NCBI GenBank assembly: GCA_049414405.1
Contig: JBMSAQ010000015.1
Coordinates: forward strand, 90,001-122,000
Direction: 5' to 3'
Source: Candidatus Nanopusillus sp.
GTDB taxonomy: Archaea > Nanobdellota > Nanobdellia > Nanobdellales > Nanobdellaceae
DNA: 32,000 nucleotides
Part shown: one piece after another, positions 1,081-20,746 of the stretch
Position numbering within the stretch: position 1 is the first letter of the stretch
Layout of the letters: every line of letters begins with the position of its first letter
Program-made: the position numbers and the translations under genes
Notes under the pieces: model-generated
What the model saw: the letters and a program-made list of their open reading frames with translations, nothing else
Told to the model about the DNA's origin: nothing
The model's database searches: none

Positions 1081-1242
1081 TTATCCCAATCCTGATCGAT
1101 TTAGTAAATCGTATCCAACGTTAGTCGCATTCACTTGCATAGAGTTATTTACTATATTATAATAAAATAATATTGCTAAAACAATTATTACCAATGCTAT
1201 TATTAAAAATATTAAAAAGTTTATTGAATTATTAGCCTCCAT
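1081..1242 (-). CDS. Mini-pilin-like protein, 53 aa (below the ORF-track cutoff)
   Basis: Hand translation of the minus strand: MEANNSINFLIFLIIALVIIVLAILFYYNIVNNSMQVNATNVGYDLLNRSGLG. ATG at 1240-1242 overlaps the end of the 61-aa ORF by 11 nt; stop at 1081-1083. Same head + helix + sequon-rich tail (NNS, NAT, NRS) as the other small paralogs. Confidence 0.55.
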   Translation of the reverse strand: MEANNSINFLIFLIIALVIIVLAILFYYNIVNNSMQVNATNVGYDLLNRSGLG

Positions 1243-1417
1243 AGTTATTTGTATTTATACTATTTACAATATTTGTGCCATTTGTTTGGGGTATACTATT
1301 GAATAAATTTACTCCACCTTTGAAATAAAAGTACATAAACATTACTAATAATACTAAAGCAACTATAAATAATATTACTGCTATTAAAAAGGTATTTACC
1401 TCTGTTTTTTTATCCAT
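1232..1417 (-). CDS. Mini-pilin-like protein, 61 aa
   Basis: ORF track. MDKKTEVNTFLIAVILFIVALVLLVMFMYFYF is a charged head plus hydrophobic helix, followed by an Asn/Thr-rich tail (NGT sequon). Overlaps both flanking mini-ORFs. Confidence 0.6.
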   Translation of the reverse strand: MDKKTEVNTFLIAVILFIVALVLLVMFMYFYFKGGVNLFNSIPQTNGTNIVNSINTNNYGG

Positions 1418-1556
1418 TTCCTCCTATTAATTGATATTTAGCAAATATATTTATATTTAGCCCTATTTTTGGCCCTATTATAATAAAAACAAATATTAAT
1501 ATTAATACAATAAATACTAATGCCAAAATTATCTTTAAAAGCTCCCCTGTTTCCAT
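1410..1556 (-). CDS. Mini-pilin-like / single-pass membrane peptide, 48 aa (below the ORF-track cutoff)
   Basis: Hand translation: METGELLKIILALVFIVLILIFVFIIIGPKIGLNINIFAKYQLIGGNG. ATG at 1554-1556; stop at 1410-1412 overlaps the ATG (1415-1417) of the next ORF by 8 nt. A TTTATAAAT TATA-like element lies 22-30 nt upstream. Confidence 0.5.
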   Translation of the reverse strand: METGELLKIILALVFIVLILIFVFIIIGPKIGLNINIFAKYQLIGGNG

Positions 1557-1586
1557 TATAAATCTAAAAACTTTGTAATTTATAAA

Positions 1587-2798
1587 CTAACTTTCGCCTG
1601 AAATTGCTGTTAATACAATTACCCTATTTCCTCCTTCATACGTATATTGTATTATCATACCATTTGGTAATCTCATATTACCTGGAATAATCATAACCCG
1701 ATCTGGTGAAGGATTACCTTCAGTTGAACTTAGTTGTTTAACATTATCACCTTGACCTTGACCTTGATATACTCTAAATGAATTTACCAATAGTTTATTA
1801 TATACATTTGATGTTTGTGGATTTGATAACATTATTTTACTATTTACATTACTTAATACCCGACATGGAATATTGTCATTACTATTCTTTATTACATTGT
1901 TTCCATACATAACTTCCAATGGGATATAATCATAATATCTCATCATTCCCAACATACACAAAACGTCATTTAATGTAACATTATATTTACTATTATAATC
2001 AAACAATATTAATGCATATTCATTATGATTTCTTGCTATAACTACGCTCTGTCCCAATGTTTCTCCGTATGTATAAAATAAATATTTTGCAATTAAATAT
2101 GTTGCATATAAGTTTTGGCATTCTTCTTTTGTTGGGTTACTACAATATCCTTGTTTTTCTATATATTCTACATATGTTTGATTTAAATCTTTAAGCATTC
2201 TTCTTATTTCAGAATTATCTATGTTACTTAAATTTAAAGCTACTACACCTTGTGGAACTAAATAATATAAAATAGGTGCTTGAATTGCATATGCTAAATT
2301 ATTTAAGAAATAAGATACCATATTTAAACCAATTGTTCCTGCCAATAAACCTTTACCCATCGGATTTAAAAAGACTTTTTTATATGTACCTCCAACATGC
2401 GATGCAATTGTTTTTATTGGAGCTCCTCCAGTATTAAGATCTCTAAATAACAAAGTTACTAAGCCAACTTTATCCTTGGCATATCCAGCACTTTTTAAAA
2501 TCTTTATGTTCTGATTATAATTTGTTTTTACTCCAGAAACTACACCAGCAGCAGTTGTAGCAGCAACAACTCCTAATAATACATCATTTGCAATTGTTGC
2601 AGCATTGGATACTCCCTGTGCCACCGGATTTATCATAAAACTTGTACTTCCAGCCAAAGCATATCCAAATTTTGCCTCTGGTCTACCTGCATAACTAAGA
2701 CCTTTTAATACATTAAAGAAAACTATTATTACAAATATTAGTATAATAATTATAACAATAAGCTCTATTACATTATCACTTATAGATTTCATAACCAT
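1587..2798 (-). CDS. Pilin-headed protein, 403 aa, function unknown; first gene of the operon
   Basis: ORF track. N-terminus MVMKSISDNVIELIVIIIILIFVIIVFFNVL, with an alternative start at Met3 giving MKSISDN, closely matching MKNSISID of the 62-aa mini-pilin. A Gly/Ala-rich hydrophobic segment follows, then an Asn-rich domain with 4 Cys. Confidence 0.65.
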   Translation of the reverse strand: MVMKSISDNVIELIVIIIILIFVIIVFFNVLKGLSYAGRPEAKFGYALAGSTSFMINPVAQGVSNAATIANDVLLGVVAATTAAGVVSGVKTNYNQNIKILKSAGYAKDKVGLVTLLFRDLNTGGAPIKTIASHVGGTYKKVFLNPMGKGLLAGTIGLNMVSYFLNNLAYAIQAPILYYLVPQGVVALNLSNIDNSEIRRMLKDLNQTYVEYIEKQGYCSNPTKEECQNLYATYLIAKYLFYTYGETLGQSVVIARNHNEYALILFDYNSKYNVTLNDVLCMLGMMRYYDYIPLEVMYGNNVIKNSNDNIPCRVLSNVNSKIMLSNPQTSNVYNKLLVNSFRVYQGQGQGDNVKQLSSTEGNPSPDRVMIIPGNMRLPNGMIIQYTYEGGNRVIVLTAISGES

Positions 2799-2997
2799 TT
2801 ATAAAAATTTTGAACTTTATTAAATTTTTTACGATAAACTTCCAACAAATAAATTCAAAAAGCTAAAATAAACATAATATCTGTTTTTTACATGTATGGA
2901 TTGTGTACAAAGCTTATAAAATTTATATAAAAAGGTTTATTTATTTAATAAGTATGAAAATACTTATGTTTTTAAAATTTTATTAAAAGTATATTAT

Positions 2998-4032
2998 ATG
3001 CAACTACGCCAGCGTTTAGATGATATTTTATTAGATGGGGTGGGGAAAAGTGTATGGGGTGGTCTTAGCAAAATTAAAGAAGGAGTTAGTAGATCTATAA
3101 GATATTTAGATGAAAAATTAAAAGAAATAGGAAATAAAACTTATGAAAAACTTAGGGAAACCAAAAATAAAATATCAGAATATATGCCAATAATAAAAGA
3201 TTCTGCAATAGCATCATTACCATATACTACGAAAGTCCTAATTTTGGCAGGATCATCTATGAAAAATACATCTAGAGGTCTTGCGGGTAGGGCTGTTGGA
3301 TATTTACTAATAGGTGCTGGTGCTGCTACCCTTGGATTATTTGTATTATCCGGAATACACGGATTACCATCTCCAAACAATGAAAACATACAATATGTGG
3401 GATCTCCAGATGGGTATCAAGGATTTGTACCAAAAGGTGTAATAAATTACGAAGGACAGACAAATCCCAGGGGTGACTTAATATTAAATGATGGAAGAGT
3501 ATTAAATAATGCAGTATGGCATGGTAAATACTCAGATACAATAATCGAGAACAACAATCAAATAGTTAAATTGAATAATTATTTTGTTGGAAAGATCAAT
3601 CCAGTAAATAATCAGCCATTTGAATATCTACAAGATGTTTATGTAATTAAAGGTCAAGTACCAATTAAAGAAATAACAATAAATGGACAAATACATTATG
3701 TAATAGATGCTAATAAAATACATGAAGCAAATGTGGCAGGATTTTATACATATAAAGAGTGGGTAGATGACTTTGTAGCAGCAATGAATACACCAGGAAC
3801 AACAGCAGCAAGATTACCAGGAGATTCTCCTGTATTTAAATGGACAAATACAATAGGGATTGTAGCATATCAAACAAAAGTGTATCAACAATATTATCCA
3901 TATTTAAGTGGAGGGGCTGTATTAATACAACCTAATGGAACTATAATTCCATATGGAATATTCGGTCCTATTATAGGGGTTAATTTATCAAACTTTGGTC
4001 TTCCTAAACAATTATATAATCCTTCTAGTTAA
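2998..4032 (+). CDS. Predicted type II membrane protein, 344 aa, function unknown
   Basis: ORF track. About 95 aa of charged, helical N-terminus, one hydrophobic span (AVGYLLIGAGAATLGLFVLSGI), then about 225 aa of Asn/Gly/Tyr-rich C-terminal domain. Divergent from the pilin-like operon and convergent with the 860-aa gene. T5/T6 runs follow the stop. Confidence 0.65.
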   Translation: MQLRQRLDDILLDGVGKSVWGGLSKIKEGVSRSIRYLDEKLKEIGNKTYEKLRETKNKISEYMPIIKDSAIASLPYTTKVLILAGSSMKNTSRGLAGRAVGYLLIGAGAATLGLFVLSGIHGLPSPNNENIQYVGSPDGYQGFVPKGVINYEGQTNPRGDLILNDGRVLNNAVWHGKYSDTIIENNNQIVKLNNYFVGKINPVNNQPFEYLQDVYVIKGQVPIKEITINGQIHYVIDANKIHEANVAGFYTYKEWVDDFVAAMNTPGTTAARLPGDSPVFKWTNTIGIVAYQTKVYQQYYPYLSGGAVLIQPNGTIIPYGIFGPIIGVNLSNFGLPKQLYNPSS

Positions 4033-4046
4033 TTTTTAACAATTTT

Positions 4047-6629
4047 TTAAGATATACTCACAACATATGGCACTCCGTATGTTACTATTATCCAATTCAG
4101 ATATATAAAACCAGGTCCGTTTCCAGAACCTGCTGAAATAAATAGATAAGGAGTTCCAACATATACATTTATATCATCTTGTAAATGGTATATACTAACA
4201 GATTGCAATTGTGAAAGACTATTGTACCTTTCTTTAAATCCAAATGTTCCATATACAAAATTATTGTCTACATCATTAAAAGTAAATTCGAAATATCTAT
4301 TCAAAGCATTTTGACGATTTGCTGGTTGATTAAACGCCGTATTATATGCATTTATGTATGATTGTACAAATATAGGTTTTTTAGTTGTTGCACTTATATT
4401 TCCAGGTGGTGCTGGTGGTATTGCATATGCATTTTTCCCATTCCAACTATATTGTACAGATGCAAGAGAATAATTAAATATATTTCCATTCATTAAGAAA
4501 AATATATTTATCTTGTTATTATCAGTAACATCGGTCTGGAACCAATTATATAACCAAAATACACCATATTGATAATATTGTTGATTATTTTTTTGATTTG
4601 GTGGCATAAATGGGAAATAGTTTTCTCCTTCATATCCACGTATATTTCCTGTATTATCTTCTAAGAAATAATAATTCAGCTTAGGACAACCCAAAGGACA
4701 TGTAAGGCTATATAAAGTACTCCACCCAGTTCCCGAATAATAATAGTTCCAATATTGATTATTTGCATTTGTATTTGGATTTTTTGTATATTTTGTAGTT
4801 AAAAAATACCCTATAGTATTGTTATATTGCAATATTCCAACATAATAACCTGCGGTATTTCCCGGTCTTGCACCCCCGGGTACCCATCCATATTCATACA
4901 TAAACATTGGAAAATTAAGTGGTAAATATGTTTCTCCCCCAACCCTTATTCCTATATCTCTATTTCCAATAGAGATACAGTCTCCCGCTATTGAACATAT
5001 TCTATTATTAAGATTATAATCATTATAATGATTTACAGTATTTATCTTTAAATTATTATTATCTGCAATATATGATAATACTACTGCATGCGAAACCAAA
5101 GGACGTGAAACCAAAGGAACAGAATCGTCGAGAGGAGGATCTAACCAAGGTATTCCAGAAAAGTATGCAAATGTTTGTAATCCCAATCCATTTTGCGATT
5201 TAGATAATCTATAAAATGTATTTTTTAAAATATCAGACGTAATTAATGCATAAGATCCTTGTTTTGTTCCATTAACCATTAATAATCCTTTAAAAGGTCT
5301 ATCGATTACAATACTTATTCTAGCTGTTCCGTTTAAATAAACGTTTACATTATTATATGGAGGTAATATATTATTATGTTGAAGTAATATATTGTTATTT
5401 TGATAACATGCTTTATATTTACTAGTATCACAATTATCTGAGGGTATCATCTCTACCCAATATACATTATTATCTGGATATGGATAAAAATTTACATATA
5501 TTGGAAATACATTTAACCCATTATCATATATAACTGCAGAAGATGGTTTATTTGGACTTAAAGCTTCTGGAGCCCCACCAATTGTTCCATTAAAGTATGG
5601 TAATAAGTTTTCATCACTAAATCCAACAAATAATGATACAATATTACAACCAAAATTATTACTATATAATGAAGGAACATTTAATAAATTAATGAAGAAA
5701 TAATAATTCCTATTATGTTCTCCAGCATACCATGAAGGTAATGCATAATATTTACCTTTATAATTAAGTATAAACACTACATTGCTTCCAACATGTGGGG
5801 ATCTTTTAATATAATTACTTAGTGGAGGACCAATTATAACCAATATATTTTGAAAATCATCCATAACGTATCCGCCATTATTTGATAAAGGTATAGCCAA
5901 ATATGTTCCATTAATAATTTTTACATTATTTATTGTATAATCATAATATTTAGAATTTGGATATTGATTTTTATCTAATAAAGATATTGCTGGAGTTATA
6001 TTTATATATAAAGGTTCATTTAAATAGAAATTTTGTATATTTTGACTATTACTTGATTTACATAATATACAAAAATATACAAAACCACCTGCCTGATATG
6101 TTACACGATTATTTCCTACAACACTACATTCATATCTATTTCCCCGATATGTATATGTAACACTATTTCCTTCAAAGGTATTATTTGATAATCTAATTAC
6201 AGATTCTATATCAACATTATTTAATGATTCTATACTATAAGATCTTGAACTAATATTTGTTATATTTTCAGGATTTATTCTTAATACATTAACATTATTA
6301 TTACCCCCGCTATAAGTATTTGTAATATTATAATATATATTCCAATTATCTTGATCTACAATAAATGAAGGAACATATTGTATACTAAATCCATTTTGAT
6401 AGTATATACTTACCATAATTGTTGAATTTATAGTGTTCTGATTATTTCTATCTTCTTTATTTGGGACATCTTTATCTTGTATTGAAATATAATATTGAGA
6501 TGGAGTATAAATATTGTAATATTTAAATATTGAAGTTAAAATAAATATAACCCCAGCTAGAATTATAATAAATATTGGAAGATAATATCCTATAAAAAGC
6601 ATAAGACTATCAAAAATTTTCCCCCTCAT
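4047..6629 (-). CDS. Large pilin-headed Asn/Tyr-rich surface protein, 860 aa (candidate adhesin or cell-envelope protein)
   Basis: ORF track. N-terminus MRGKIFDSLMLFIGYYLPIFIIILAGVIFIL. I counted at least a dozen N-x-S/T sequons by eye. Cys residues occur in closely spaced pairs (FCILC, CDTSKYKAC, CSIAGDC, CPLGC). The ATG overlaps the stop of the 62-aa mini-pilin in an ATGA junction. Confidence 0.8.
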   Translation of the reverse strand: MRGKIFDSLMLFIGYYLPIFIIILAGVIFILTSIFKYYNIYTPSQYYISIQDKDVPNKEDRNNQNTINSTIMVSIYYQNGFSIQYVPSFIVDQDNWNIYYNITNTYSGGNNNVNVLRINPENITNISSRSYSIESLNNVDIESVIRLSNNTFEGNSVTYTYRGNRYECSVVGNNRVTYQAGGFVYFCILCKSSNSQNIQNFYLNEPLYINITPAISLLDKNQYPNSKYYDYTINNVKIINGTYLAIPLSNNGGYVMDDFQNILVIIGPPLSNYIKRSPHVGSNVVFILNYKGKYYALPSWYAGEHNRNYYFFINLLNVPSLYSNNFGCNIVSLFVGFSDENLLPYFNGTIGGAPEALSPNKPSSAVIYDNGLNVFPIYVNFYPYPDNNVYWVEMIPSDNCDTSKYKACYQNNNILLQHNNILPPYNNVNVYLNGTARISIVIDRPFKGLLMVNGTKQGSYALITSDILKNTFYRLSKSQNGLGLQTFAYFSGIPWLDPPLDDSVPLVSRPLVSHAVVLSYIADNNNLKINTVNHYNDYNLNNRICSIAGDCISIGNRDIGIRVGGETYLPLNFPMFMYEYGWVPGGARPGNTAGYYVGILQYNNTIGYFLTTKYTKNPNTNANNQYWNYYYSGTGWSTLYSLTCPLGCPKLNYYFLEDNTGNIRGYEGENYFPFMPPNQKNNQQYYQYGVFWLYNWFQTDVTDNNKINIFFLMNGNIFNYSLASVQYSWNGKNAYAIPPAPPGNISATTKKPIFVQSYINAYNTAFNQPANRQNALNRYFEFTFNDVDNNFVYGTFGFKERYNSLSQLQSVSIYHLQDDINVYVGTPYLFISAGSGNGPGFIYLNWIIVTYGVPYVVSIS

Positions 6630-6814
6630 CTTATTAGATCTGGAATTGATTGATTTGTAATATTATTAAAACTATTATTGATGAAATTGAATGATTGATT
6701 TGATGCTGTATTTCCACCCAAAAATATTTTATATCCAAACATAACTGCTAAAACCAATATAACCAATGCAATAATTAAAATAATTACCATATCTATTGAT
6801 ATGCTATTTTTCAT
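6626..6814 (-). CDS. Mini-pilin-like protein, 62 aa
   Basis: ORF track. MKNSISIDMVIILIIALVILVLAVMFGY, then tail GGNTASNQSFNFINNSFNNITNQSIPDLIR with 4 sequons. Translationally coupled to the 860-aa gene by a 4-nt overlap. Confidence 0.65.
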   Translation of the reverse strand: MKNSISIDMVIILIIALVILVLAVMFGYKIFLGGNTASNQSFNFINNSFNNITNQSIPDLIR

Positions 6815-6846
6815 ATATATCTAAAAAATCTCATTAATTATAAATT

Positions 6847-7287
6847 TTATTCGAAAACTTTCTTTTTATAATAATACAAAATTATTCCAAGATTAGTAAT
6901 TAATATTCCATCTGCTATAAGACAATATATACATATTGAATTAATTAAAAAGAACATAGTATATAATGAAAATATTACAAATATTATACCAATTGACCTA
7001 TAAAATAAATTATAAATTATTTTCAACATTTTCTTATACAACAACAATATCAAAAATAAATCTACTATAAAATATGCAATAGTATAAACTCCCAAAGATA
7101 TCCCAAATAACTTTGAATATGGACTATTCAATACTTTTTCACAATCAATTAATGTATTATCAACAGAACAAAAATATGGTAATGATTTACTTATCAAAAC
7201 CGTATATTCTAGATATACAAATATAATTATACCTATTATTGAGAATATTGTCAATAAAAATAATCTTTTATCAAATTTTAAGTTCAT
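6847..7287 (-). CDS. Vitamin K epoxide reductase (VKOR) family disulfide oxidoreductase
   Basis: 146 aa with about four hydrophobic spans. Loop cysteine pair and conserved Ser region FCSVDNTLIDCEKVLNSPYSKLFGISLG. A CxxC (CIYC) sits inside the last helix. This is the VKOR/DsbB-like signature layout. Confidence 0.7.
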   Translation of the reverse strand: MNLKFDKRLFLLTIFSIIGIIIFVYLEYTVLISKSLPYFCSVDNTLIDCEKVLNSPYSKLFGISLGVYTIAYFIVDLFLILLLYKKMLKIIYNLFYRSIGIIFVIFSLYTMFFLINSICIYCLIADGILITNLGIILYYYKKKVFE

Positions 7288-7340
7288 AAAATATAAATAA
7301 GTATTATAAATTTATAAATTTTTGAATAAATAAACAAAAA

Positions 7341-7901
7341 ATGGGGAAATATTATCATTTATCATTTGAAAAAGAAGAAATTAGCAAAAAAATAAAATTA
7401 GAAAATGAAGAAGATCCATTATTTATTATTAGTTATAATCCATCAGCATATTCTTTTAGATATACATTTCTATTATATTTACTTTTTTGTATATATGGTA
7501 TTGTATTTTCTATTTCAACATACTATAATCCTAATATAATGTCTTTTATTTTATTATTTTTTATTACTTCAATTTTATTCTATATTGCACTTAAATATTA
7601 TGAAGTGGCAAAGAATCGTTATATAATACTTACAAATAAGAGATTAATATTACTTGAAAATGAAAATATAAGGTCAATAGATAATTCATATATAAATAAT
7701 ATAGAAATATATCAAAGTTTATATGAAAGATCTAAAAAATTATATACGATAAAAATTTATACCAGTACACTTTTATTAAATAAAAATGTGAGTTTAATAA
7801 TTGAATTACCATTACTTAAAAAGGAAGATATGGAAAAAATAAGAGAAATTATCCTAAATAATATACCTAAGAGGCCTGAACAGGCGAAACCTGTTCCTTA
7901 A
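7341..7901 (+). CDS. Membrane protein with a bacterial-type PH (bPH_2/DUF304-like) domain
   Basis: Two hydrophobic helices followed by YIILTNKRLILLENENIRSIDNSYINNIEIYQS, the typical 'vTnkRli' start of bPH domains. The 3' end overlaps the L21e gene by 35 nt. Confidence 0.5.
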   Translation: MGKYYHLSFEKEEISKKIKLENEEDPLFIISYNPSAYSFRYTFLLYLLFCIYGIVFSISTYYNPNIMSFILLFFITSILFYIALKYYEVAKNRYIILTNKRLILLENENIRSIDNSYINNIEIYQSLYERSKKLYTIKIYTSTLLLNKNVSLIIELPLLKKEDMEKIREIILNNIPKRPEQAKPVP

Positions 7902-8190
7902 ATTTTTCTAAATGTGCTGGATGAACAATTATAATTTTCTTTTTTCCTTTATCATTTACTAAAACTTCATAACAACTTCCCCTCTTTCCCAAAATTATTC
8001 CAATCATTCCATGATATTTTGGATGTGGCATTGTTTTATTATATGAAGGATCTATCTTTATTACAACCTTATCGTTTATATTAAATTCTTGTAATATTTT
8101 CCTTATCTTTATTTTACCATGTTCTCTTATATGTAATGATAATTTATCTCTTGATTTCCTTCTCAACCCCTTTCCCTTTCTTGCAGTCAT
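7867..8190 (-). CDS. rpl21e: 50S ribosomal protein L21e
   Basis: MTARKGKGLRRKSRDKLS...PKYHGMIGIILGKRGSCYEVLVNDKGKKKIIIVHPAHL matches the L21e family pattern and length. Confidence 0.9.
   Translation of the reverse strand: MTARKGKGLRRKSRDKLSLHIREHGKIKIRKILQEFNINDKVVIKIDPSYNKTMPHPKYHGMIGIILGKRGSCYEVLVNDKGKKKIIIVHPAHLEKFKEQVSPVQAS
7878..7896. terminator. GC-rich perfect hairpin GAACAGG-CGAAA-CCTGTTC in the convergent overlap of two genes (possible bidirectional terminator or RNA-stability element)
   Basis: 7-bp stem and 5-nt loop read directly from the sequence. It stands out in the AT-rich context and sits inside the last codons of both convergent ORFs. Confidence 0.3.
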
Positions 8191-8242
8191 TAAATTAAAA
8201 GTTCATGATATATTTTTAAATAATATTTAAAAAGATATATAA

Positions 8243-8560
8243 ATGGAAGTACTGAACAAAAAAATTATAACACCAGCAAATGTTAAAAGTATATTATTAA
8301 AAAATAAAGAAAGGAGAAATTTATTATATATAGAAGAAAGAACGTTGAAATTCCTTAACAATACATATAAATTAGATGAAAATGAAGAAAAAGAAATATT
8401 GAAAGTTTTAAAAGATATAAATTTACCTGATGAGGTAAAAATACAAATATTAGAAATGTTGCCAAAAAATGAGGAAGAATTAAGAGTAGTATTATATACA
8501 CATACTTTAAGCAAACAAGATATGGAAAAAATATTAAATTTAATAAAGAAATATGGATAG
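8243..8560 (+). CDS. rpoF: DNA-directed RNA polymerase subunit F (Rpo4)
   Basis: 105 aa, helical and Lys/Glu-rich. Lies in the conserved archaeal L21e-RpoF-DUF655 neighbourhood. Overlaps the next gene by 8 nt. Confidence 0.7.
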   Translation: MEVLNKKIITPANVKSILLKNKERRNLLYIEERTLKFLNNTYKLDENEEKEILKVLKDINLPDEVKIQILEMLPKNEEELRVVLYTHTLSKQDMEKILNLIKKYG

Positions 8561-9092
8561 AAAAGAAGAGTATGCAGTTGTAATATATTATTTACCTGGA
8601 GGTGACCCCACAAAAAATATAAAAGAGCCAGCAGTATATGTAGTTGGAAGAGATTATTTCACATTACTATTATTAACATTAAAACCTGGTGTTACAGTAA
8701 ATTTATTTGAAGAACTATATATTGGAAATAAACAAAGGGATAAAGTAAGATCAGTACTAAGAAAATTATCATTTGATGAATTACCAGAAATTGCAAAAGC
8801 AAATTTAGAAAAAGCAATAAAAGATTTAATAATAAAAAATGAGAAAAAATTCGTAGAATTCTTTAATAAAGCTGGTCCATTAAATATCAGAATTCATTCA
8901 TTAGAATTATTACCAGATATTGGAAAAGTAACTGTACAAAAAATTATAGAAGAAAGGCAGAAGAAACCATTTGAATCATTTAAAGATATTGAAGAAAGAG
9001 TAAAAGGAATTAAAAATATACAAAACATAATTTACGAAAGAATAATCAGAGAGTTATCTGAAAAAGAAAAGACAAAATTATTCACTATCTAG
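8553..9092 (+). CDS. DUF655 (COG1491) predicted RNA-binding protein
   Basis: EEYAVVIYYLPGG...FTLLLLTLKPG...FVEFFNKAGPLNIRIHSLELLPDIGKVTVQKIIEERQKKPFESFKDIEERV matches the DUF655 pattern, including the helix-hairpin-helix region. Confidence 0.8.
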   Translation: MDRKEEYAVVIYYLPGGDPTKNIKEPAVYVVGRDYFTLLLLTLKPGVTVNLFEELYIGNKQRDKVRSVLRKLSFDELPEIAKANLEKAIKDLIIKNEKKFVEFFNKAGPLNIRIHSLELLPDIGKVTVQKIIEERQKKPFESFKDIEERVKGIKNIQNIIYERIIRELSEKEKTKLFTI

Positions 9093-9353
9093 CTTTATAT
9101 TATTTAACTTTGCTTTTATCTTTAAATATTTTTCATACTTTGTTAATTCAATATTACTCTTTTCTTTTATACTGATTAATAATAATTGCTTCATGAATTT
9201 TTTCCATTTTCTTTTATTCATTGTAACATTTCTTAAATGTGATTTCATCAAATGTCTGCTATATTTTTTACTATTTACAAATATATGACCGCATAATGGG
9301 CATTTAAATATTTCTCTTCCATTTCTGTCAATTTCCCTTACAGCATGTAACAT
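9078..9353 (-). CDS. Small C2H2 zinc-finger protein
   Basis: CPLCGHIFVNSKKYSRHLMKSH is a C-x2-C-x12-H-x4-H motif. Basic C-terminal half. Lies 30 nt downstream of fibrillarin on the same strand. Confidence 0.6.
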   Translation of the reverse strand: MLHAVREIDRNGREIFKCPLCGHIFVNSKKYSRHLMKSHLRNVTMNKRKWKKFMKQLLLISIKEKSNIELTKYEKYLKIKAKLNNIKLDSE

Positions 9354-9383
9354 TTTTTATATATTTATGATAACCTTTAAAAA

Positions 9384-10058
9384 TTATTTATTTTGAATTA
9401 AAAAAATCGAATGATCAATATGATATGGCTCTAATCTTACTTCTTTTATTATCTTTAATCCGTAATCTTCTAATTCCTTTCTTACTGCCCTAAATATCTC
9501 TTTTGGATCCTTAGATACATCAATTGATCTAGCTTTTACCGCTAAAAACCCATATCCTTTATTCTTTAAATAGTATTCTATATTTTTAATAAATATTTTT
9601 ACCTGATGTGGTTGAGCAACGTCCTGATATATCAAATCAACCTTTGTAACAATATGCAAATATTCCCATGGTTTATCAGCATCTGCTAATATTCCAATAA
9701 TATTTTTTCTATCATATAGTACCGAAACTAAATCCCTTAATATTCTTGAAGAAACATCTATACCAAATATTAATCCATTTTTATCAACTATATCAGAAAT
9801 ATGAGATGCTGTTGTACCGGAAGCAATACCTAAATATAATATTCTATCACCCCTATCAATTGGTACTTCTCCAATATTTTTCTTAATTGCTGCTGCTAAT
9901 TTAGACCTATTTACAATCCATTCTCTATATTCTTCATTATTATATTTAATCAACTTCTCTTCATATAAACTCTTCCCAGGTACTAAATTTTTTGTATATA
10001 ATCTCCCTTTCTCATCAATAAATATATTTTTATTTTCCTTTAGTGGTTTTAATTTCAT
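9384..10058 (-). CDS. flpA: Fibrillarin (C/D box sRNP 2'-O-methyltransferase)
   Basis: EYREWIVNRSKLAAAI, ILYLGIASGTTASHISDIV, DVAQPHQ and KARSIDVS motifs. 4-nt overlap with nop5. Confidence 0.95.
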   Translation of the reverse strand: MKLKPLKENKNIFIDEKGRLYTKNLVPGKSLYEEKLIKYNNEEYREWIVNRSKLAAAIKKNIGEVPIDRGDRILYLGIASGTTASHISDIVDKNGLIFGIDVSSRILRDLVSVLYDRKNIIGILADADKPWEYLHIVTKVDLIYQDVAQPHQVKIFIKNIEYYLKNKGYGFLAVKARSIDVSKDPKEIFRAVRKELEDYGLKIIKEVRLEPYHIDHSIFLIQNK

Positions 10059-11038
10059 TTTTCAGATAATTCTCTAAATCTTTTATCCAATTCTTCCTTC
10101 AATTTATGATATATTATTTTTCCATTCAGATCTGCTTTCACTGCGATAGATATTTTTGATGCTAATGTTCTAGCCATTGCTCCTCTTCTTTTTGGTGGTA
10201 ATCTTTGCAAATATGGATGATTAAATATTACACCATGCTTTGGGGGTTTTATACCCTTAGATAAATGTAAAAATAATGCCTTTTCTGCACCTAAAACCTG
10301 TATTGTTGATGAGGGTAATAATGATAATTCTTTCAATCCACTGGCTAATAATATTAATCTTGCACCAATTTTTGGAGTAGCAATTTCTGATAAATTTGGA
10401 GCAATTTCTTTCATTAATTTTTCAATATAATTTTCTAAATCTTTTCTTAAATCATACAACTCTTTTATCTTTAATGATATTTCATTCATTATTTCTAAAT
10501 CTTCCTTCTTAAATATTTTTCCACCCATTGTTTTGTTGATATTATATTTTTTCATCAATTCTTCCCTATCAGAATTTACAATTGCTCTTATAAATTTTTC
10601 ATGATCTTCAATTTCTTGTGAAATTTCTGGAAGATATAATCCGTACCATTCTCTAAATCTCTCCATGAATAAATTTAGTGTTTTATTCAAATCGTCAAGA
10701 AAACTTATTGCCTGAATTATTATTTCATCCTTACTTATAGAATCTGATATTTGTTCTTTTAATAAGCCAATAAATAACTTATTATCAATTTTCTCTTCTC
10801 CAATTTTTTCCATTACCTTTCTTATCATACTTATATCTTCTGTATATTTATATCCATCAAATCTTTGTCCAATAAAAATATCATTTTCCTTTATATATTT
10901 CTTTACCTTTTCAGGTAATTTATTTTTATATATTTCTTTTAAATCATCTAAATTCAACTCTACATTAATTTTCTGAAAATTTTCTAAATTATCATCAAAT
11001 ATATATAATCCATTATATCTCAACAAAATATAGCTCAT
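10055..11038 (-). CDS. nop5: Nop5 (Nop56/58) C/D box sRNP protein
   Basis: C-terminal NOP domain GAEKALFLHLSKGIKPPKHGVIFNHPYLQ...RGAMARTLASKISIAVKAD. Directly upstream of fibrillarin. Confidence 0.9.
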   Translation of the reverse strand: MSYILLRYNGLYIFDDNLENFQKINVELNLDDLKEIYKNKLPEKVKKYIKENDIFIGQRFDGYKYTEDISMIRKVMEKIGEEKIDNKLFIGLLKEQISDSISKDEIIIQAISFLDDLNKTLNLFMERFREWYGLYLPEISQEIEDHEKFIRAIVNSDREELMKKYNINKTMGGKIFKKEDLEIMNEISLKIKELYDLRKDLENYIEKLMKEIAPNLSEIATPKIGARLILLASGLKELSLLPSSTIQVLGAEKALFLHLSKGIKPPKHGVIFNHPYLQRLPPKRRGAMARTLASKISIAVKADLNGKIIYHKLKEELDKRFRELSEK

Positions 11039-11349
11039 TTTAATATCTTTAACGATATTCTAAATCCTTTTGATGGAATTTGCATATTTATAAAATAATT
11101 TTTGAAAAATCTTTCATCATTCGCAACATCTAAAAATCTTCTATATATTTTTATTTGATATGTTTCATATATCTTTGTTCCTCTCTTTCCTAATGTTCTC
11201 ATAGTTGGTATTCTAATTACCTTTGTTGGTAAATTAACAGGACCTCTCTTTTCAATACCCAATTGTTCAATTATTTTTAACAATTGATTAGTAAACTGGT
11301 TCATTGTTTTTAAATCTGTTCCCCACATTTTAATCCTTATCATTGACAT
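11035..11349 (-). CDS. rps10: 30S ribosomal protein S10 (uS10)
   Basis: IRIKMWGTDLKTMNQFTNQLL...RGPVNLPTKVIRIPTMR...YQIKIYRRFLDV matches the S10 pattern. 4-nt overlap with nop5. Confidence 0.9.
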   Translation of the reverse strand: MSMIRIKMWGTDLKTMNQFTNQLLKIIEQLGIEKRGPVNLPTKVIRIPTMRTLGKRGTKIYETYQIKIYRRFLDVANDERFFKNYFINMQIPSKGFRISLKILK

Positions 11350-11373
11350 AAATTGATAATATGTATTATATTT

Positions 11374-13254
11374 TTAAATGCTTTCTACAGGTTCAATTCT
11401 TAATATATAAAATATTTTATTCAATACTTCTTTCGTTAAATATACTAGGAATAACCTATGTGGATACTTATCTTTATAATTTAATATTGGGACATTCTGG
11501 TAAAATTCATTAAATGATCTAACCAAATCTATTAAATATCTATACAAATGGTTTAATTCTAATGATTTTTCAATATCATAAATTATATCTTTAAATCTAA
11601 ATAGATTAATAATTAATTTCTCTTCATATTTATTTAATTCATTTATTTCAAATTCTTCAGGTATTTTATCAACTTTATTTAATAATGATCTTATCCTTGC
11701 ATATGTATACAAAAAGTATATTACATTTCCTTCTTCTAAATTTAACATTTTATCGATATCGAATAGTATTGTAGTATTTCTATCATATTTTAACATTTCC
11801 AATGATATAAAACTTTTTACTATCCTTTCAGAAATTTCTTTATCTTTAAATTTATCATATGCAATATTATATAATTTCTCATATAATTCATCAACATTTA
11901 TATACAATCCTTTTCTTCCAGACATTTTTATATCTTCATTTATTCCAAATATTTTTGCAGTATTTCTATGTAATCTAACCAACCCATATCCATAATATAT
12001 ATATTTAGATTCTTTATCAATTTCTTCAATTATCCTTTTCACCATTAATTGATTATGCATTTGTTCCATTCCAATTACATTTATTGAAACTTTACATAGT
12101 TCAATTTCTTTTCCCTCATTATTTACTTCATATATATATTCATCATTCGGTTGTTTTATATATTCTTTAAATTTAATATTTGATCTAATTATACCATGTT
12201 TCCACATTGCATATGCAATATCTTTTGCAATATATGTGGTAGTTCCATCTGATCTTACAAGAACCTTTTCTTTATTTGAATATGCTCTATATATATCTTC
12301 CCATCTTGTTAAATCCAGAGAAATTGTACCATTCTTTTTTATCATTTTATTTTCTTCCAATATTTTTAATGCACTATCAAATAATTTATACCTTAATATG
12401 TCGGATTCTCTAATAATTATATTAAAATGTATATTAAATTTCCACAATGTATTTAATTGTTCATATAAAATTTTTTCCGATATTCTTTTAGATAAATAAT
12501 ATACATCATTATTACCTTCTTCAATCATCTTTATAATATTATATTTGTATTTTTCTAATTCTGGAATTATTTCATATAATTTATTAACTATTACATATAT
12601 AAAATCTCCATAATAGTGATCAAATTTCTCAGGAACTTCATATCCATATAAACTTTTCAATAATCTCATTCTTTCCAAAAATATTTCTCTAATTTTTTCA
12701 TCATATTCTTCTTTATATATATTCTCTTTTATTAAAAAATCTTTTATATTGTTTATTACTTTTTCTAAGTTGAAATCTTTTGGTTCTTCAGGTATCTTCA
12801 AATAACATATTCCTAAAATGTTATCACTAACCTGAACTCCTGTATCATCTATATAATTTATTACGTGTATATCATAATTTAATGTTTTAAACAATCTATA
12901 CAGAGAATCTCCAATTATTGAATTTCTTAAATGGCCTATATGTAATGCTTTATTAGGATTTGCTGATGTATGCTCTAAAAATATTCTAACATTCTTTTTT
13001 TCAAAATCAAACAATTTTCTATAATTTTCTAATAATTTTCCCTTATTCAACTTAATATTTAGATATCCGTTTATAAATTTGTAATCTAAAACAAATTCTC
13101 TTATTTTTTCAATTATTTCATTTACTAATATATTTATGTCTTTTCTTTTTTTCATTTCTTTGAACAATTTAATTGCTATATCATAATCTAAATTCTTTGG
13201 GGGTTCAGAAAATTCTATATCATAATCTTTTAATTTTTCTTTTATTATCCACAT
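11374..13254 (-). CDS. argS: Arginine--tRNA ligase
   Basis: EHTSANPNKALHIGHLRNSIIGDSL (HIGH region, ArgRS-specific context) with class I length and layout. I place the start at MWIIKEK (13254). The 23-codon track extension to 13323 would overlap the divergent mini-pilin gene and its TATA-like elements. Confidence 0.9.
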   Translation of the reverse strand: MWIIKEKLKDYDIEFSEPPKNLDYDIAIKLFKEMKKRKDINILVNEIIEKIREFVLDYKFINGYLNIKLNKGKLLENYRKLFDFEKKNVRIFLEHTSANPNKALHIGHLRNSIIGDSLYRLFKTLNYDIHVINYIDDTGVQVSDNILGICYLKIPEEPKDFNLEKVINNIKDFLIKENIYKEEYDEKIREIFLERMRLLKSLYGYEVPEKFDHYYGDFIYVIVNKLYEIIPELEKYKYNIIKMIEEGNNDVYYLSKRISEKILYEQLNTLWKFNIHFNIIIRESDILRYKLFDSALKILEENKMIKKNGTISLDLTRWEDIYRAYSNKEKVLVRSDGTTTYIAKDIAYAMWKHGIIRSNIKFKEYIKQPNDEYIYEVNNEGKEIELCKVSINVIGMEQMHNQLMVKRIIEEIDKESKYIYYGYGLVRLHRNTAKIFGINEDIKMSGRKGLYINVDELYEKLYNIAYDKFKDKEISERIVKSFISLEMLKYDRNTTILFDIDKMLNLEEGNVIYFLYTYARIRSLLNKVDKIPEEFEINELNKYEEKLIINLFRFKDIIYDIEKSLELNHLYRYLIDLVRSFNEFYQNVPILNYKDKYPHRLFLVYLTKEVLNKIFYILRIEPVESI

Positions 13255-13305
13255 AAAATTGATTTTTATAAAAAGTTTAAAAATATGGCAATTGTATAAA
13301 AATTT

Positions 13306-13512
13306 ATGATAAAGAGAGGTCAATCTCTAACAATTAACACATTAGTTATATTGATATTGGTCCTTGTTGCCTTAATATTCATAATCTTATTTTTTACAGG
13401 TACGTTTTCTAAAGGTACAACTGGAGTAAATAATGTACTAAATCCCGCATTAAATCAAACAAATCAAACAGGCCAACTAATCAACAATTTACCAAATCAG
13501 ATTAATGGTTAA
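13306..13512 (+). CDS. Class III signal peptide (type IV pilin-like) mini-protein, 68 aa
   Basis: MIKRGQSLTINTLVILILVLVALIFIILFF carries the textbook archaeal prepilin motif (K/R)-G followed by Q/S, then a hydrophobic helix. Tail has NQTNQT sequons. TATA-like TTTAAAAATA is centred about 26 nt upstream of the ATG. Confidence 0.7.
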   Translation: MIKRGQSLTINTLVILILVLVALIFIILFFTGTFSKGTTGVNNVLNPALNQTNQTGQLINNLPNQING

Positions 13513-13581
13513 TCTTATATATTTGATAATACAACATAACTTTCTACAAGCCAATCTTCTACATAATAAATCAATTAAAAT

Positions 13582-13764
13582 ATGAAAAGATCTGATGTTA
13601 TTAATTTTATAATCTTCTTAATAATTGGGCTTGTTGTTTTAGTATTGGTTATAATTTTTGTAGTTCCACAAACAACGAAAATAATGTCATCTCAACAAAA
13701 TCTATCAAATGTATCAAACAATGTTCTAAATCAAACATTTAGCAATATATCAAATATCAATTAA
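13582..13764 (+). CDS. Mini-pilin-like protein, 60 aa
   Basis: MKRSDVINFIIFLIIGLVVLVLVIIFVV, then tail QQNLSNVSNNVLNQTFSNISNIN with 4 sequons. Tandem to the 68-aa paralog. Confidence 0.6.
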   Translation: MKRSDVINFIIFLIIGLVVLVLVIIFVVPQTTKIMSSQQNLSNVSNNVLNQTFSNISNIN

Positions 13765-18326: not shown

Positions 18327-18416
18327 GGGCCCGTAGCTCAGAGGTGGAGCGCCGGCCTTATAAGGCTACGCTCCTGAGAAAGCCGGAGGTCAGGGGTTCG
18401 AGTCCCCTCGGGCCCA
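18327..18416 (+). tRNA. tRNA-Ile (anticodon UAU) with an 18-nt intron at canonical position 37/38
   Basis: Hand-folded: acceptor GGGCCCG/CGGGCCC, D arm GCTC-AGAGGTG-GAGC, anticodon stem CCGGC/GCCGG, loop CTTATA|intron|A, T arm AGGGG-TTCGAGT-CCCCT, discriminator A. A T5 run follows the 3' end. tRNA call 0.9, isotype call about 0.7. Confidence 0.85.
18363..18380 (+). other. tRNA intron within a canonical bulge-helix-bulge (BHB) motif
   Basis: Central 4-bp helix C57-G78, U58-A77, U59-G76, A60-U75 (last two digits of the coordinates). It is flanked by 3-nt bulges U61-A62-A63 and A79-A80-A81, each cut after its second base. Outer helices are the anticodon stem and G64-G65/C73-C74. Confidence 0.75.
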
Positions 18417-19828: not shown

Positions 19829-20746
19829 TTAGCTAGATACTAAAGGTTGCAATATACTATTAAATAAATTATATGGCAGAGCCCCTGAAAATATAAACAT
19901 TATATATTTATAATCCTCTGTTGTATATACTGAAGGGCTTAATCCATATTGTCTTAATTGATTTAGTACATTATTAACCTGTTGAATTGCTTGGAATGTA
20001 ATTGATGATGTCTTTACAACTACCATAAATGTTGGAGTTCCCCCAATTCCGTATGTGTCCCTATAATATTTTAATTCACTATCTATTTGATTATAGTATT
20101 TTGAACTATTTACACAGGATTCGATTCTATTAACATCCAATCCTAAAGATTGTGCCTTTTTATTAAATTCTCTATATACATCTTGTTGACTTGGTAAAAT
20201 ACTCCAAGACACACCTTGCATTTGATTATGCCAAGCCCAGTTTGCAAGTTTATCCCACGTTTCAAATCCATATAATTTGTATACGCATGTTAAATATTGT
20301 GCTGTTAGATTCGCGTATGGGTGTATCTGATATAGTGGAAAATTGACAAACACCCATGCTATTTTTCCATTATCTATGTAATTTTGTCTAATTTGTGGAA
20401 ATGTTTGTAAGTGAAATAGATTACAATATGGACATTGAAAATCAGAAAATTCATATACAATAACATTTACATTATTTGGATTTCCATATACTGGATCTAT
20501 ATCAGAAATACTTGGCAATGGTGCCTGTGGTAATGTTTGTAAATAAGCTTGTAATTGATTTGAAGGTCCAACAGATGATCCATATATTTTTATATTTGAT
20601 ATTGAATTGGCTATAATGTAAGATCCTATAACTACTGAAATTGCTAACACTATAAATCCAATTATTATTGATTTTTCTACTGTAATATTAAACTTCCGTT
20701 CTTTCTTTTCATTATTTTCTTTATTTTTTTCTTTTTCTATTTCCAT
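19829..20746 (-). CDS. Membrane-anchored DsbA-like thioredoxin-fold oxidoreductase (CPYC)
   Basis: Lys/Glu-rich N-terminus, one TM (IIIGFIVLAISVVIGSYII), then EFSDFQCPYCNLFH and a late GGTPTF (cis-Pro loop-like) motif, typical of DsbA/Thioredoxin_4 proteins. Confidence 0.7.
   Translation of the reverse strand: MEIEKEKNKENNEKKERKFNITVEKSIIIGFIVLAISVVIGSYIIANSISNIKIYGSSVGPSNQLQAYLQTLPQAPLPSISDIDPVYGNPNNVNVIVYEFSDFQCPYCNLFHLQTFPQIRQNYIDNGKIAWVFVNFPLYQIHPYANLTAQYLTCVYKLYGFETWDKLANWAWHNQMQGVSWSILPSQQDVYREFNKKAQSLGLDVNRIESCVNSSKYYNQIDSELKYYRDTYGIGGTPTFMVVVKTSSITFQAIQQVNNVLNQLRQYGLSPSVYTTEDYKYIMFIFSGALPYNLFNSILQPLVSS

Follow-up and report, generated by a model that had tools for sequence, protein, structure and literature searches.

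In Methanococcus maripaludis the major pilin, EpdE (MMP1685), is a protein of 74 amino acids (aa), of which 62 make up the mature, N-glycosylated form, and MMP0528, MMP0903 and MMP1283, which are pilin-like, have 54-63 aa when mature (PMC3875500). These Methanococcus pilins carry a glycine at position -1 of the cleavage site, a glutamine at +1, a glutamate at +5 and 1-6 glycosylation sequons, and the M. maripaludis genes are scattered away from both the ATPase/platform locus and an 11-gene operon of larger pilins (PMC3875500). Bacterial prepilins may be as short as 44 residues (PMC4471445). In the Nanoarchaeota, which live attached to a host archaeon, filaments and adhesins of the surface are foremost among the candidates for recognising the host; the 2016 census of archaeal type IV pili (Makarova et al.) reported secretion ATPases in nanoarchaea, the cognate pilins not being identified, and the component proteins of the nanoarchaeal attachment organelle are unknown (PMC11420986). 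We report here on six very small proteins encoded in 32,000 nucleotides of a Candidatus Nanopusillus genome (GenBank assembly GCA_049414405.1, contig JBMSAQ010000015.1, positions 90,001 to 122,000; this whole stretch is called the window below). Five of them, F68, F60, F62, F53 and F61, are paralogs of one family, and the sixth, of 48 aa, is an operon partner. The explanation that we favour, with measured confidence, is that the family members are the building blocks of a type IV filament or pseudopilus that is thin and glycosylated, for which large proteins encoded in the same operons would be minor pilins or adhesins.

The six proteins have a common design, which an earlier reading made from the letters of the DNA alone (the sequence-only reading) had recognised: a polar head, a helix (18-29 residues) and a tail (21-34 aa). 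The six open reading frames (ORFs) on which it was based are all present in the ORF list of the window, at just the coordinates it gave, and the tails are rich in Asn, Ser, Thr and Gln in five of the six, as it had seen. The mature proteins are predicted to have about 44-63 aa, and five of the six carry 1-4 conserved sequons. The likeness to the Epd pilins (precursors of 67-76 aa, mature forms of 54-63 aa) extends to a short leader, ending in Gly and followed by Gln(+1) in F68, to a polar or acidic residue at about +5, to the near absence of a globular domain, to the 1-6 sequons, and to a genetic organisation in which genes dispersed at a distance from the ATPase/platform locus coexist with a multi-gene operon of larger pilin-like proteins. 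The same reading had held such mature products to be shorter than known archaeal pilins; this does not hold, because EpdE (62 aa mature) and its relatives MMP0528, MMP0903 and MMP1283 (54-63 aa) are equally short. Unlike the Epd pilins, the Nanopusillus proteins have no PF04021 match, their polar residue is mostly Asn, Asp or Ser instead of Glu and is found at +5 or +6, their leaders are reduced to 2-5 residues, and Gly(-1) is lost in most paralogs; moreover, no EppA-like peptidase is annotated in N. acidilobi.

The resemblance among the six proteins exceeds what composition can produce. The summed score of their pairwise local alignments was 965, compared to 645 ± 34 in shuffles that kept the composition of head, helix and tail separately (z = 9.5, 0/300), meaning that the AT-biased composition, named by the sequence-only reading as a possible source of the similarity, does not reproduce it. 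The signal resides mostly in the helix core: the tails contribute weakly (z = 3.1), and the head with the first 8 helix residues, taken alone, is not significant among the six (z = 1.5). Profiles from which one subfamily was left out recovered F68, F60, F62 and F53 at z values of 4.1 to 7.3 (7.3 for F62, 5.8 for F53), with 0/300 decoys for each, and F61 at z = 2.6, also with 0/300 decoys. We conclude that F68, F60, F62, F53 and F61 are true paralogs, so that the six-member family first proposed is upheld for five.

The 48-aa protein was not recovered by its leave-one-out profile (z = -0.5, 195 of 300 decoys equal or better). Having given no signal in either profile test, this one or the external one described below, it was rejected as a sixth member. 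Its gene is conserved all the same, the 16 members of its cluster differing only by changes of the V/I/L/M and K/R type, and we regard it as an operon partner whose family membership is not demonstrated by sequence comparison.

A profile of the six proteins retrieved 217 clusters of 52-101 aa, all belonging to five orthologous groups; every named cluster comes from Nanopusillus or from metagenome-assembled genomes (MAGs) of 'Nanoarchaeota'. Metagenomic copies number in the hundreds, F62 being present on 7 metagenome contigs. Homologs occur in at least four nanoarchaeal genera plus other DPANN lineages (F68 was followed across species by a scan of a genome collection, the other subfamilies from 20-kb loci), and the family is thus not confined to this genome, the other outcome that would have spoken against it. 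The F68 orthologs Nst1_024 and MJ1_0029 and those of YN1 and N. acidilobi share synteny, and the F62 ortholog of Nanobdella begins with MRNDLAIST. The genes are under purifying selection, with non-synonymous values (pN) of 0.31-0.34 compared to synonymous values (pS) of 0.62-0.79, and a dN/dS ratio of about 0.3 (F68: pN 0.34, pS 0.79; F60: dN/dS about 0.31).

Three other nanoarchaeal metagenome ORFs (P0138, P0141 and P0155, 113-124 aa) contain two mini-protein modules in one frame, an F61-like module and then an F53/F60-like module with a KSKRS↓D head (the arrow separates positions -1 and +1, here and below). They are either true fusions or read-throughs of overlapping genes. If the fusion is true, the second module would have the opposite topology.

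F68 has the head MIKRG↓QSLTINT and, further along, LFFTGTFSKG; its orthologs conform to M-[VI]-[KR]-[KR]-G↓Q-S-[LI]-x-I-[N/D/E]-T, about 20 hydrophobic residues, and then F-F-T-G. Judged from these residues, the N-terminus of F68 is a textbook archaeal class III signal peptide. Gly(-1) is found in 18 of 24 F68 ortholog clusters, a few F68 alleles having R or S. Compared to the DUF361 motif QxSxExxxL, F68 has G(-1) and Q(+1), but its Ser is at +2 and its N/D/E at +6.

An exhaustive HMMER search through 1.84 billion representative sequences, with a profile of 23 family sequences, gave 46 matches at E ≤ 1e-3. Among these were 49-69-aa KG-headed homologs of other nanoarchaea, and 90-180-aa Cys-rich proteins with the heads MKKA↓QLSINT, KRG↓QGLSMNT, KKA↓QGLPINF and KKG↓QGLPVNT. 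When a search was seeded with those N-termini, 74 further short proteins were found (41-81 aa, KK[GA] heads), originating from Nanobsidianus (Nst1_024), Nanobdella (MJ1_0029), Woesearchaeota and Pacearchaeota; each of the 74 bears the annotation hypothetical and lacks a pilin-family Pfam domain. The hidden Markov model (HMM) search beyond the genome that the sequence-only reading had called for has therefore recovered homologs across DPANN. The reverse comparison used an external HMM made of 42 non-Nanopusillus DPANN members only, applied to the 175 ORFs of at least 30 aa in the window. Its top five were the five paralogs: F68 (E = 2.6e-18), F60 (3.2e-9), F62 (1.9e-5), F53 (1.7e-4) and F61 (0.054). 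Relative to segment-shuffled decoys, F68 scored at z = 16, F60 at 5.7 and F62 at 4.7, and F53 was marginal, 3 of 300 decoys being equally good. The remote relatives P0137 and P0153 read Q-L-S-I-N, that is, the DUF361 register with Asn for Glu. On these similarities, we place the five genes as the Nanopusillus/Nanobdellales branch of a DPANN-wide family of short class III proteins of 41-81 aa. The names attached to such proteins by JGI (ComGC, FliL, FlaF/FlaG, PerM, YukC) were rejected as annotation, being inconsistent across near-identical orthologs.

Within the window set, a canonical cleavage site is present only in F68. The -1 residue is R in F60, N in F62, A in F53 (where no basic residue precedes it) and T in F61, and the 48-aa protein has TG in an acidic head. 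These positions follow from the orthologs. F60 has KG-headed ones (MKKG↓DLSISY in YN1, MKG↓QNISIE in Nanobdella, MKG↓SEAIS in Nanopusillus RHS.bin.5), and in an alignment anchored on the helix core their Gly stands opposite R3 of F60 (MKR-SDVIN), the ancestral Gly(-1) having become Arg or Lys in most Nanopusillus genomes. In the register of the motif, -1 corresponds to N3 of F62 and to A3 of F53 (Ser or Leu in F53 relatives), and the register first proposed, with Ser at -1, is wrong for these proteins. In F61 the residue is Thr or Ala, with variant heads MVKKA↓QVNTF that have A(-1) and Q(+1). A Gly-to-Ser change is also seen in the 403-aa protein of the same operon, MKKG↓VSDSVISL in Nanobdella (a partial ortholog with a canonical class III head) versus MVMKS↓ISDNVIEL here, a head akin to those of the family. 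The early polar residue, I-[N/D/E/S], is kept at +5/+6 in F68, F60, F62 and F53, and is at +3 in F61. The conserved unit is thus [K/R]-[G ancestral]↓x-x-[S/A]-I-[N/D/E/S], which approaches the QxSxE motif seen in DUF361 pilins, and in Nanopusillus the cleavage-site glycine has decayed. Of the likeness to pilins claimed at the outset, the early polar residue and the class III homology are upheld.

A remote member of the family is linked to type IV pilus (T4P) machinery. P0148 (130 aa) is encoded in a DPANN operon (L014) together with a 757-aa ATPase of the type II secretion system E type (T2SS-E, PF00437), a polytopic membrane protein of 698 aa and an uninterrupted run of 15 KK[GA]-headed proteins that range from 48 to 866 aa, several of them of 48-72 aa. 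P0194 and P0208 belong to Woesearchaeota arrays in which 15 of 17 and 5 of 7 genes, respectively, have such heads, beside giant adhesin-like proteins. The Nanopusillus layout, with tiny and very large N-terminal-helix proteins that are translationally coupled, parallels these arrays. What it shares with the DPANN T4P-like loci (System 1/subsystem 4A, e.g. L014) is the homologous N-terminus, K-K-[GA]↓Q-x-L-[SP]-I-N-T ... F-F-T-G, and arrays mixing proteins of 48-72 aa with others of 130-870 aa, all of them having N-terminal helices. It differs from them in that the Nanopusillus arrays do not adjoin an ATPase/platform gene, in its degenerate heads, and in its large proteins, which have no detectable sequence similarity to those of L014: BLASTP of the large Nanopusillus operon proteins found none with the large L014 proteins, nor with each other. 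A tblastn search with the ATPase and platform protein of L014 against 27 loci and the window gave matches only in L014-L016. For N. acidilobi, the published gene table places a T2SS protein F and secretion ATPases in other parts of the genome, one ATPase having been detected by proteomics.

The first small gene after the platform-like gene of L014 (L014 5723-5869) also encodes 48 aa, and shares an E-x-L-[IL]-K-I helix start with the 48-aa protein of the window. This likeness may be a coincidence.

The tails were examined for N-glycosylation sequons. The counts agree with those of the sequence-only reading: 4 in F62, 4 in F60, 3 in F53 (plus 1 in its head), 2 in F68 and 1 in F61, with 0 in the 48-aa protein. 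Pooled, the tails contain 14 sequons compared to 6.7 expected from shuffles of tail composition (P = 0.001), and their density, 8.1 per 100 aa, is about 20-fold that of 18 cytoplasmic proteins of the window (0.40). The sequons are also conserved. In 28 distinct F62 orthologs their N and S/T are invariant or nearly so and X varies; the four of F60 are all kept between genera despite the changes NLS to NLT, NVS to NTS, NQT to NNT and NIS to NIT; and F68 has two invariant ones, NQT NQT. For comparison with a larger protein, the 860-aa protein has 13 sequons and 14% Asn, and the density over the 369-, 282-, 162- and 500-aa genes and a separate 157-aa gene is 2.6 per 100 aa. The surface of N. acidilobi binds wheat germ agglutinin, which indicates a surface bearing N-acetylglucosamine.

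Tail length is variable in F68, whose length ranges from 65 to 121 aa among strains and genera (L025 10001-10366, L011 9711-9995); long alleles end in poly-Ser/Thr (P0048, P0105, P0121, N. acidilobi, YN1). The 69-nt spacer that follows the 68-aa allele of the window (13306-13581) may be the remnant of a decayed tail. Another tail is found in the Woesearchaeota-type proteins P0164, P0173, P0176, P0179, P0185, P0194, P0199, P0206 and P0208, which carry at the C-terminus a module of about 40 aa that contains 4-6 Cys (e.g. ...CCIKLTNS). This module takes the place of the sequon-rich tail: the N-terminal helix is the same but is decorated in another way.

The AlphaFold2 model of the F68 monomer has a helix at residues 4-30, the blocks covering 11-30 averaging 90-94 in predicted local distance difference test (pLDDT), the rest being a loose linker and then a second, weak helix, without any globular domain. 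The 309-aa protein encoded directly after F53 was modelled in the same way with 34 orthologs (pLDDT 88, predicted template modelling score 0.82): a helix of 51 residues (2-52) precedes a beta-rich domain. Such an order, helix and then beta domain, resembles the usual layout of type IV pilins. A Foldseek search of the PDB with this model returned nothing at E ≤ 1e-3, so that the predicted likeness to pilins would be one of architecture only; matches to the GFP barrel were discarded as meaningless (TM about 0.17). The 309-aa orthologs listed are 53-100% identical, the 33 used in the model 55-88%. Since the 309-aa orthologs of Nanopusillus and Nanobsidianus are mostly 55-88% identical, compared to column identities of mostly about 90% in the ortholog sets of the small proteins, the large partners diversify faster. 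This agrees with the high density of non-synonymous single-nucleotide polymorphisms in 'hypothetical external' nanoarchaeal proteins (PMC6142677).

Coordinates are given in Table 1. The operon has the order 403-48-61-53-309-369-282-162-500 aa and extends beyond the left edge of the window, as seen on longer contigs (L007, L009), F53 being its fourth gene. An N-terminal hydrophobic helix is common to all its proteins, and most of those encoded downstream are rich in sequons; the 403-aa protein is annotated with 3 transmembrane domains in N. acidilobi. The 48-, 61- and 53-aa genes abut or overlap each other, F61 overlapping both neighbours, and the stop of F62 and the start of the 860-aa gene share 4 nt, the two genes being translationally coupled. 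No Pfam family above cut-off was found in the 403- and 860-aa proteins or in the 309-, 369-, 282-, 162- and 500-aa operon proteins. F68 and F60 are standalone genes of the plus strand that lie between ArgRS and tRNA-Trp/eIF-1A. The window has a G+C content of about 25% and contains the housekeeping genes for fibrillarin, Nop5, S10, ArgRS, eIF-1A, MCM, EF-1alpha and IleRS; its genes correspond to ACO2ON_02300-02385 of the NCBI MAG, and identical sequences occur in hot-spring metagenomes.

Table 1. Small proteins, their large partners and other features of the window
Feature	Size	Position	Strand	Context and proposed role
F68	68 aa	13306..13512	+	standalone, between ArgRS and eIF-1A
F60 (MKR SDVINF...)	60 aa	13582..13764	+	paralog, four tail sequons
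F62 (MKN SISIDMV...)	62 aa	6626..6814	-	paralog, four sequons
F53 (MEA NNSINF..., acidic head)	53 aa	1081..1242	-	paralog, three tail sequons
F61 (MDKKT↓EVNTF)	61 aa	1232..1417	-	paralog, one sequon (NGT)
Single-helix protein (METG↓ELLK...)	48 aa	1410..1556	-	operon partner, 0 sequons
403-aa protein (MVMKS↓ISDNVIEL)	403 aa	1587..2798	-	opens the operon; may be a minor pilin or an accessory membrane protein
309-aa protein	309 aa	150..1079	-	directly downstream of the 48/61/53 genes; candidate minor pilin or adhesin
860-aa protein (MRG↓KIFDSL..., N-terminally anchored)	860 aa	4047..6629	-	sequon-rich; candidate tip adhesin
369-aa protein (gene start only in window)	369 aa	1..148	-	next gene of the F53 operon
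VKOR homolog		6847..7287	-	directly upstream of the 62-aa gene
DsbA-like thioredoxin, membrane-anchored		19829..20746	-	
tRNA (Rfam tRNA, 64 bits)	90 nt	18327..18416	+	
Hyper-acidic ORF (E/D/W runs)	52 aa	14259..14417	-	between eIF-1A and NMD3

Some other features of the region are worth recording. On contig L001 (JGI 3300001337), the 62-aa gene (L001 10189-10400) is followed by a 73-aa gene, Pyr_excise and others, and the 860-aa gene is absent; this difference is a strain rearrangement or break point at the F62/860 junction (window position about 6626). The VKOR homolog and the DsbA-like protein form an extracytoplasmic disulfide-forming pair, consistent with the Cys-containing surface proteins of the operon. 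ARAGORN gives no anticodon identity for the tRNA of Table 1; an intron, frequent in nanoarchaeal tRNAs, is probably present. A 52-aa gene is also called where synteny would place the hyper-acidic ORF, both in contigs of Nanopusillus and in YN1 (L001, L011).

How a filament would be built from these proteins can be outlined. Each small protein would insert with its N-terminus inside and its C-terminus outside, through its single hydrophobic helix, and in those that retain Gly or Ala at -1 (F68, some F60 and F61 alleles) a leader of a few residues would be cleaved off on the cytoplasmic side. By homology, the helix would then be drawn out of the membrane by an ATPase of the T2SS-E type and a platform of the TadC/FlaJ type, whose genes lie in other parts of the genome, and would come to lie packed in the hydrophobic core, either of a thin type IV filament or of a short pseudopilus. 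The tail of 25-35 aa, N-glycosylated at the conserved sequons, would form a glycan coat, a design like that of EpdE and of bacterial Flp pilins. F68 and F60, standalone and highly conserved, are the best candidates for major subunits, and the nine-gene operon and the F62-860 pair would supply minor pilins and adhesins.

With the Flp/Tad pilins, the likeness is that of mini-pilins made basically of one N-terminal helix and a short tail, to which truncated pilins such as Geobacter PilA-N are also comparable. Unlike them, the Nanopusillus proteins have neither the Flp motif (G↓xxxxEY) nor a Pfam Flp/TadE match above cut-off (F60 had a sub-threshold Tad match, PF13400, with E = 0.009 and 16.8 bits for a cut-off of 22.3), and their tails carry predicted archaeal N-linked-style glycosylation.

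Several observations weigh against such a filament. Gly(-1) is replaced in F60 (R/K), F62 (N), F61 (T/A) and F53 (A/S/L), which makes canonical cleavage doubtful for most members. No A24 prepilin peptidase is found in the N. acidilobi annotation, though its host has one, and Makarova et al. noted that the prepilin peptidase is missing from two nanoarchaea; the decay of the glycine fits with both. No pilin model of Pfam or NCBIfam matches the six proteins, the large operon proteins or ten canonical remote relatives, the only scores being sub-threshold noise of transmembrane type. In particular, the comparison with the Pfam class III families advocated by the sequence-only reading yielded no match and nothing near cut-off, PF04021 being absent from hmmscan at E ≤ 1 for the six proteins and three F68 orthologs, and at E ≤ 0.1 for the ten remote relatives. 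Sequence profile searches of the PDB found no solved pilin, only unrelated transmembrane helices, and the empty Foldseek search with the 309-aa model adds to this. With the external HMM, F61 is not significant (E = 0.054, 23/300 decoys) and the 48-aa protein gives no signal. An ATPase/platform gene is found neither in the 32-kb window nor within 10 kb of any member examined in Nanopusillus, Nanobsidianus, Nanobdella and YN1. Finally, Nps_00145/00150 and Nps_00205-00255 went undetected in the N. acidilobi proteome; this is uninformative because the coverage of that proteome is low, ArgRS having been missed as well. The type IV pilin-like nature first claimed for these proteins is accordingly supported as far as family and class III homology go, cleavage and filament formation being our inference.

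Many of these points would be explained if the proteins were former pilins that no longer form a filament, kept in the membrane as unprocessed single-pass glycopeptides with the N-terminus in and the C-terminus out. They might then serve in a glycocalyx, in S-layer anchoring, or, with the large co-operonic proteins, as small subunits of an envelope complex, for example the attachment organelle with its still unknown proteins (PMC11420986). The loss of the cleavage Gly in most members, heads of only 2-5 residues, a prepilin peptidase that is not annotated, and the distance from T4P machinery are all in line with this, as is the coupling of small genes to large membrane-anchored proteins, some of them multi-segment (403 and 369 aa). 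However, the complete K-K-G↓Q site of F68 survives in almost every strain and genus, implying that processing is still under selection; the relatives reside in bona fide T4P-type loci; and the early polar residue typical of filament-forming subunits (N/D/E/S at +5/+6) is conserved. We see the membrane glycopeptide as the main rival account, possible but rather unlikely.

A more speculative proposal, to which we give little credence, is that the prepilin peptidase has disappeared from Nanopusillus and that its pilins have become 'pre-trimmed', with leaders of 2-5 residues, mini-subunits that would be assembled unprocessed by the retained ATPase and platform. The decay of Gly(-1) to R, K, S or N goes in the direction expected under AT pressure. 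If this were true, a glycan-coated filament with large variable tip proteins could be the thin intercellular filament of the attachment organelle.

It is very improbable, in our view, that the proteins are Sec-type precursors in which signal peptidase I removes the N-terminal helix, an ordinary signal peptide, and frees glycopeptides of 25-35 aa acting as signals or toxins. N. acidilobi does encode signal peptidase I, and the authors' table scores Nps_00150 (F68) as signal-peptide positive. Yet the hydrophobic stretch has 18-29 residues, a transmembrane length. The h-region of a Sec signal is far shorter than that. This stretch is moreover the most conserved part of the protein, there is no A-x-A-type site after the helix, and it is with class III peptides, not class I, that the head motif shows homology. 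Least tenable of all is the idea that these are not genes but hydrophobic Asn-rich ORFs of a genome with 25% G+C, very AT-rich, whose ORF list in the window does include many spurious hydrophobic ORFs: it is already refuted for five of the six by orthologs in at least four genera with shared synteny, pN well below pS, metagenomic copies in the hundreds, a family profile that scores none of the spurious window ORFs, and a similarity that shuffle controls do not reproduce.

What is new is a family that lies outside PF04021 and all other Pfam/NCBIfam models, with unusually short and degenerate leaders; the design of a very short N-glycosylated pilin is not new, being established in Methanococcus. 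That the cleavage-site glycine has decayed where annotation shows no recognisable prepilin peptidase is an evolutionary oddity open to testing. For the nanoarchaea themselves, this family, annotated as 'hypothetical' throughout, yields conserved candidates for the missing pilins, F68 and F60 being possible major subunits.

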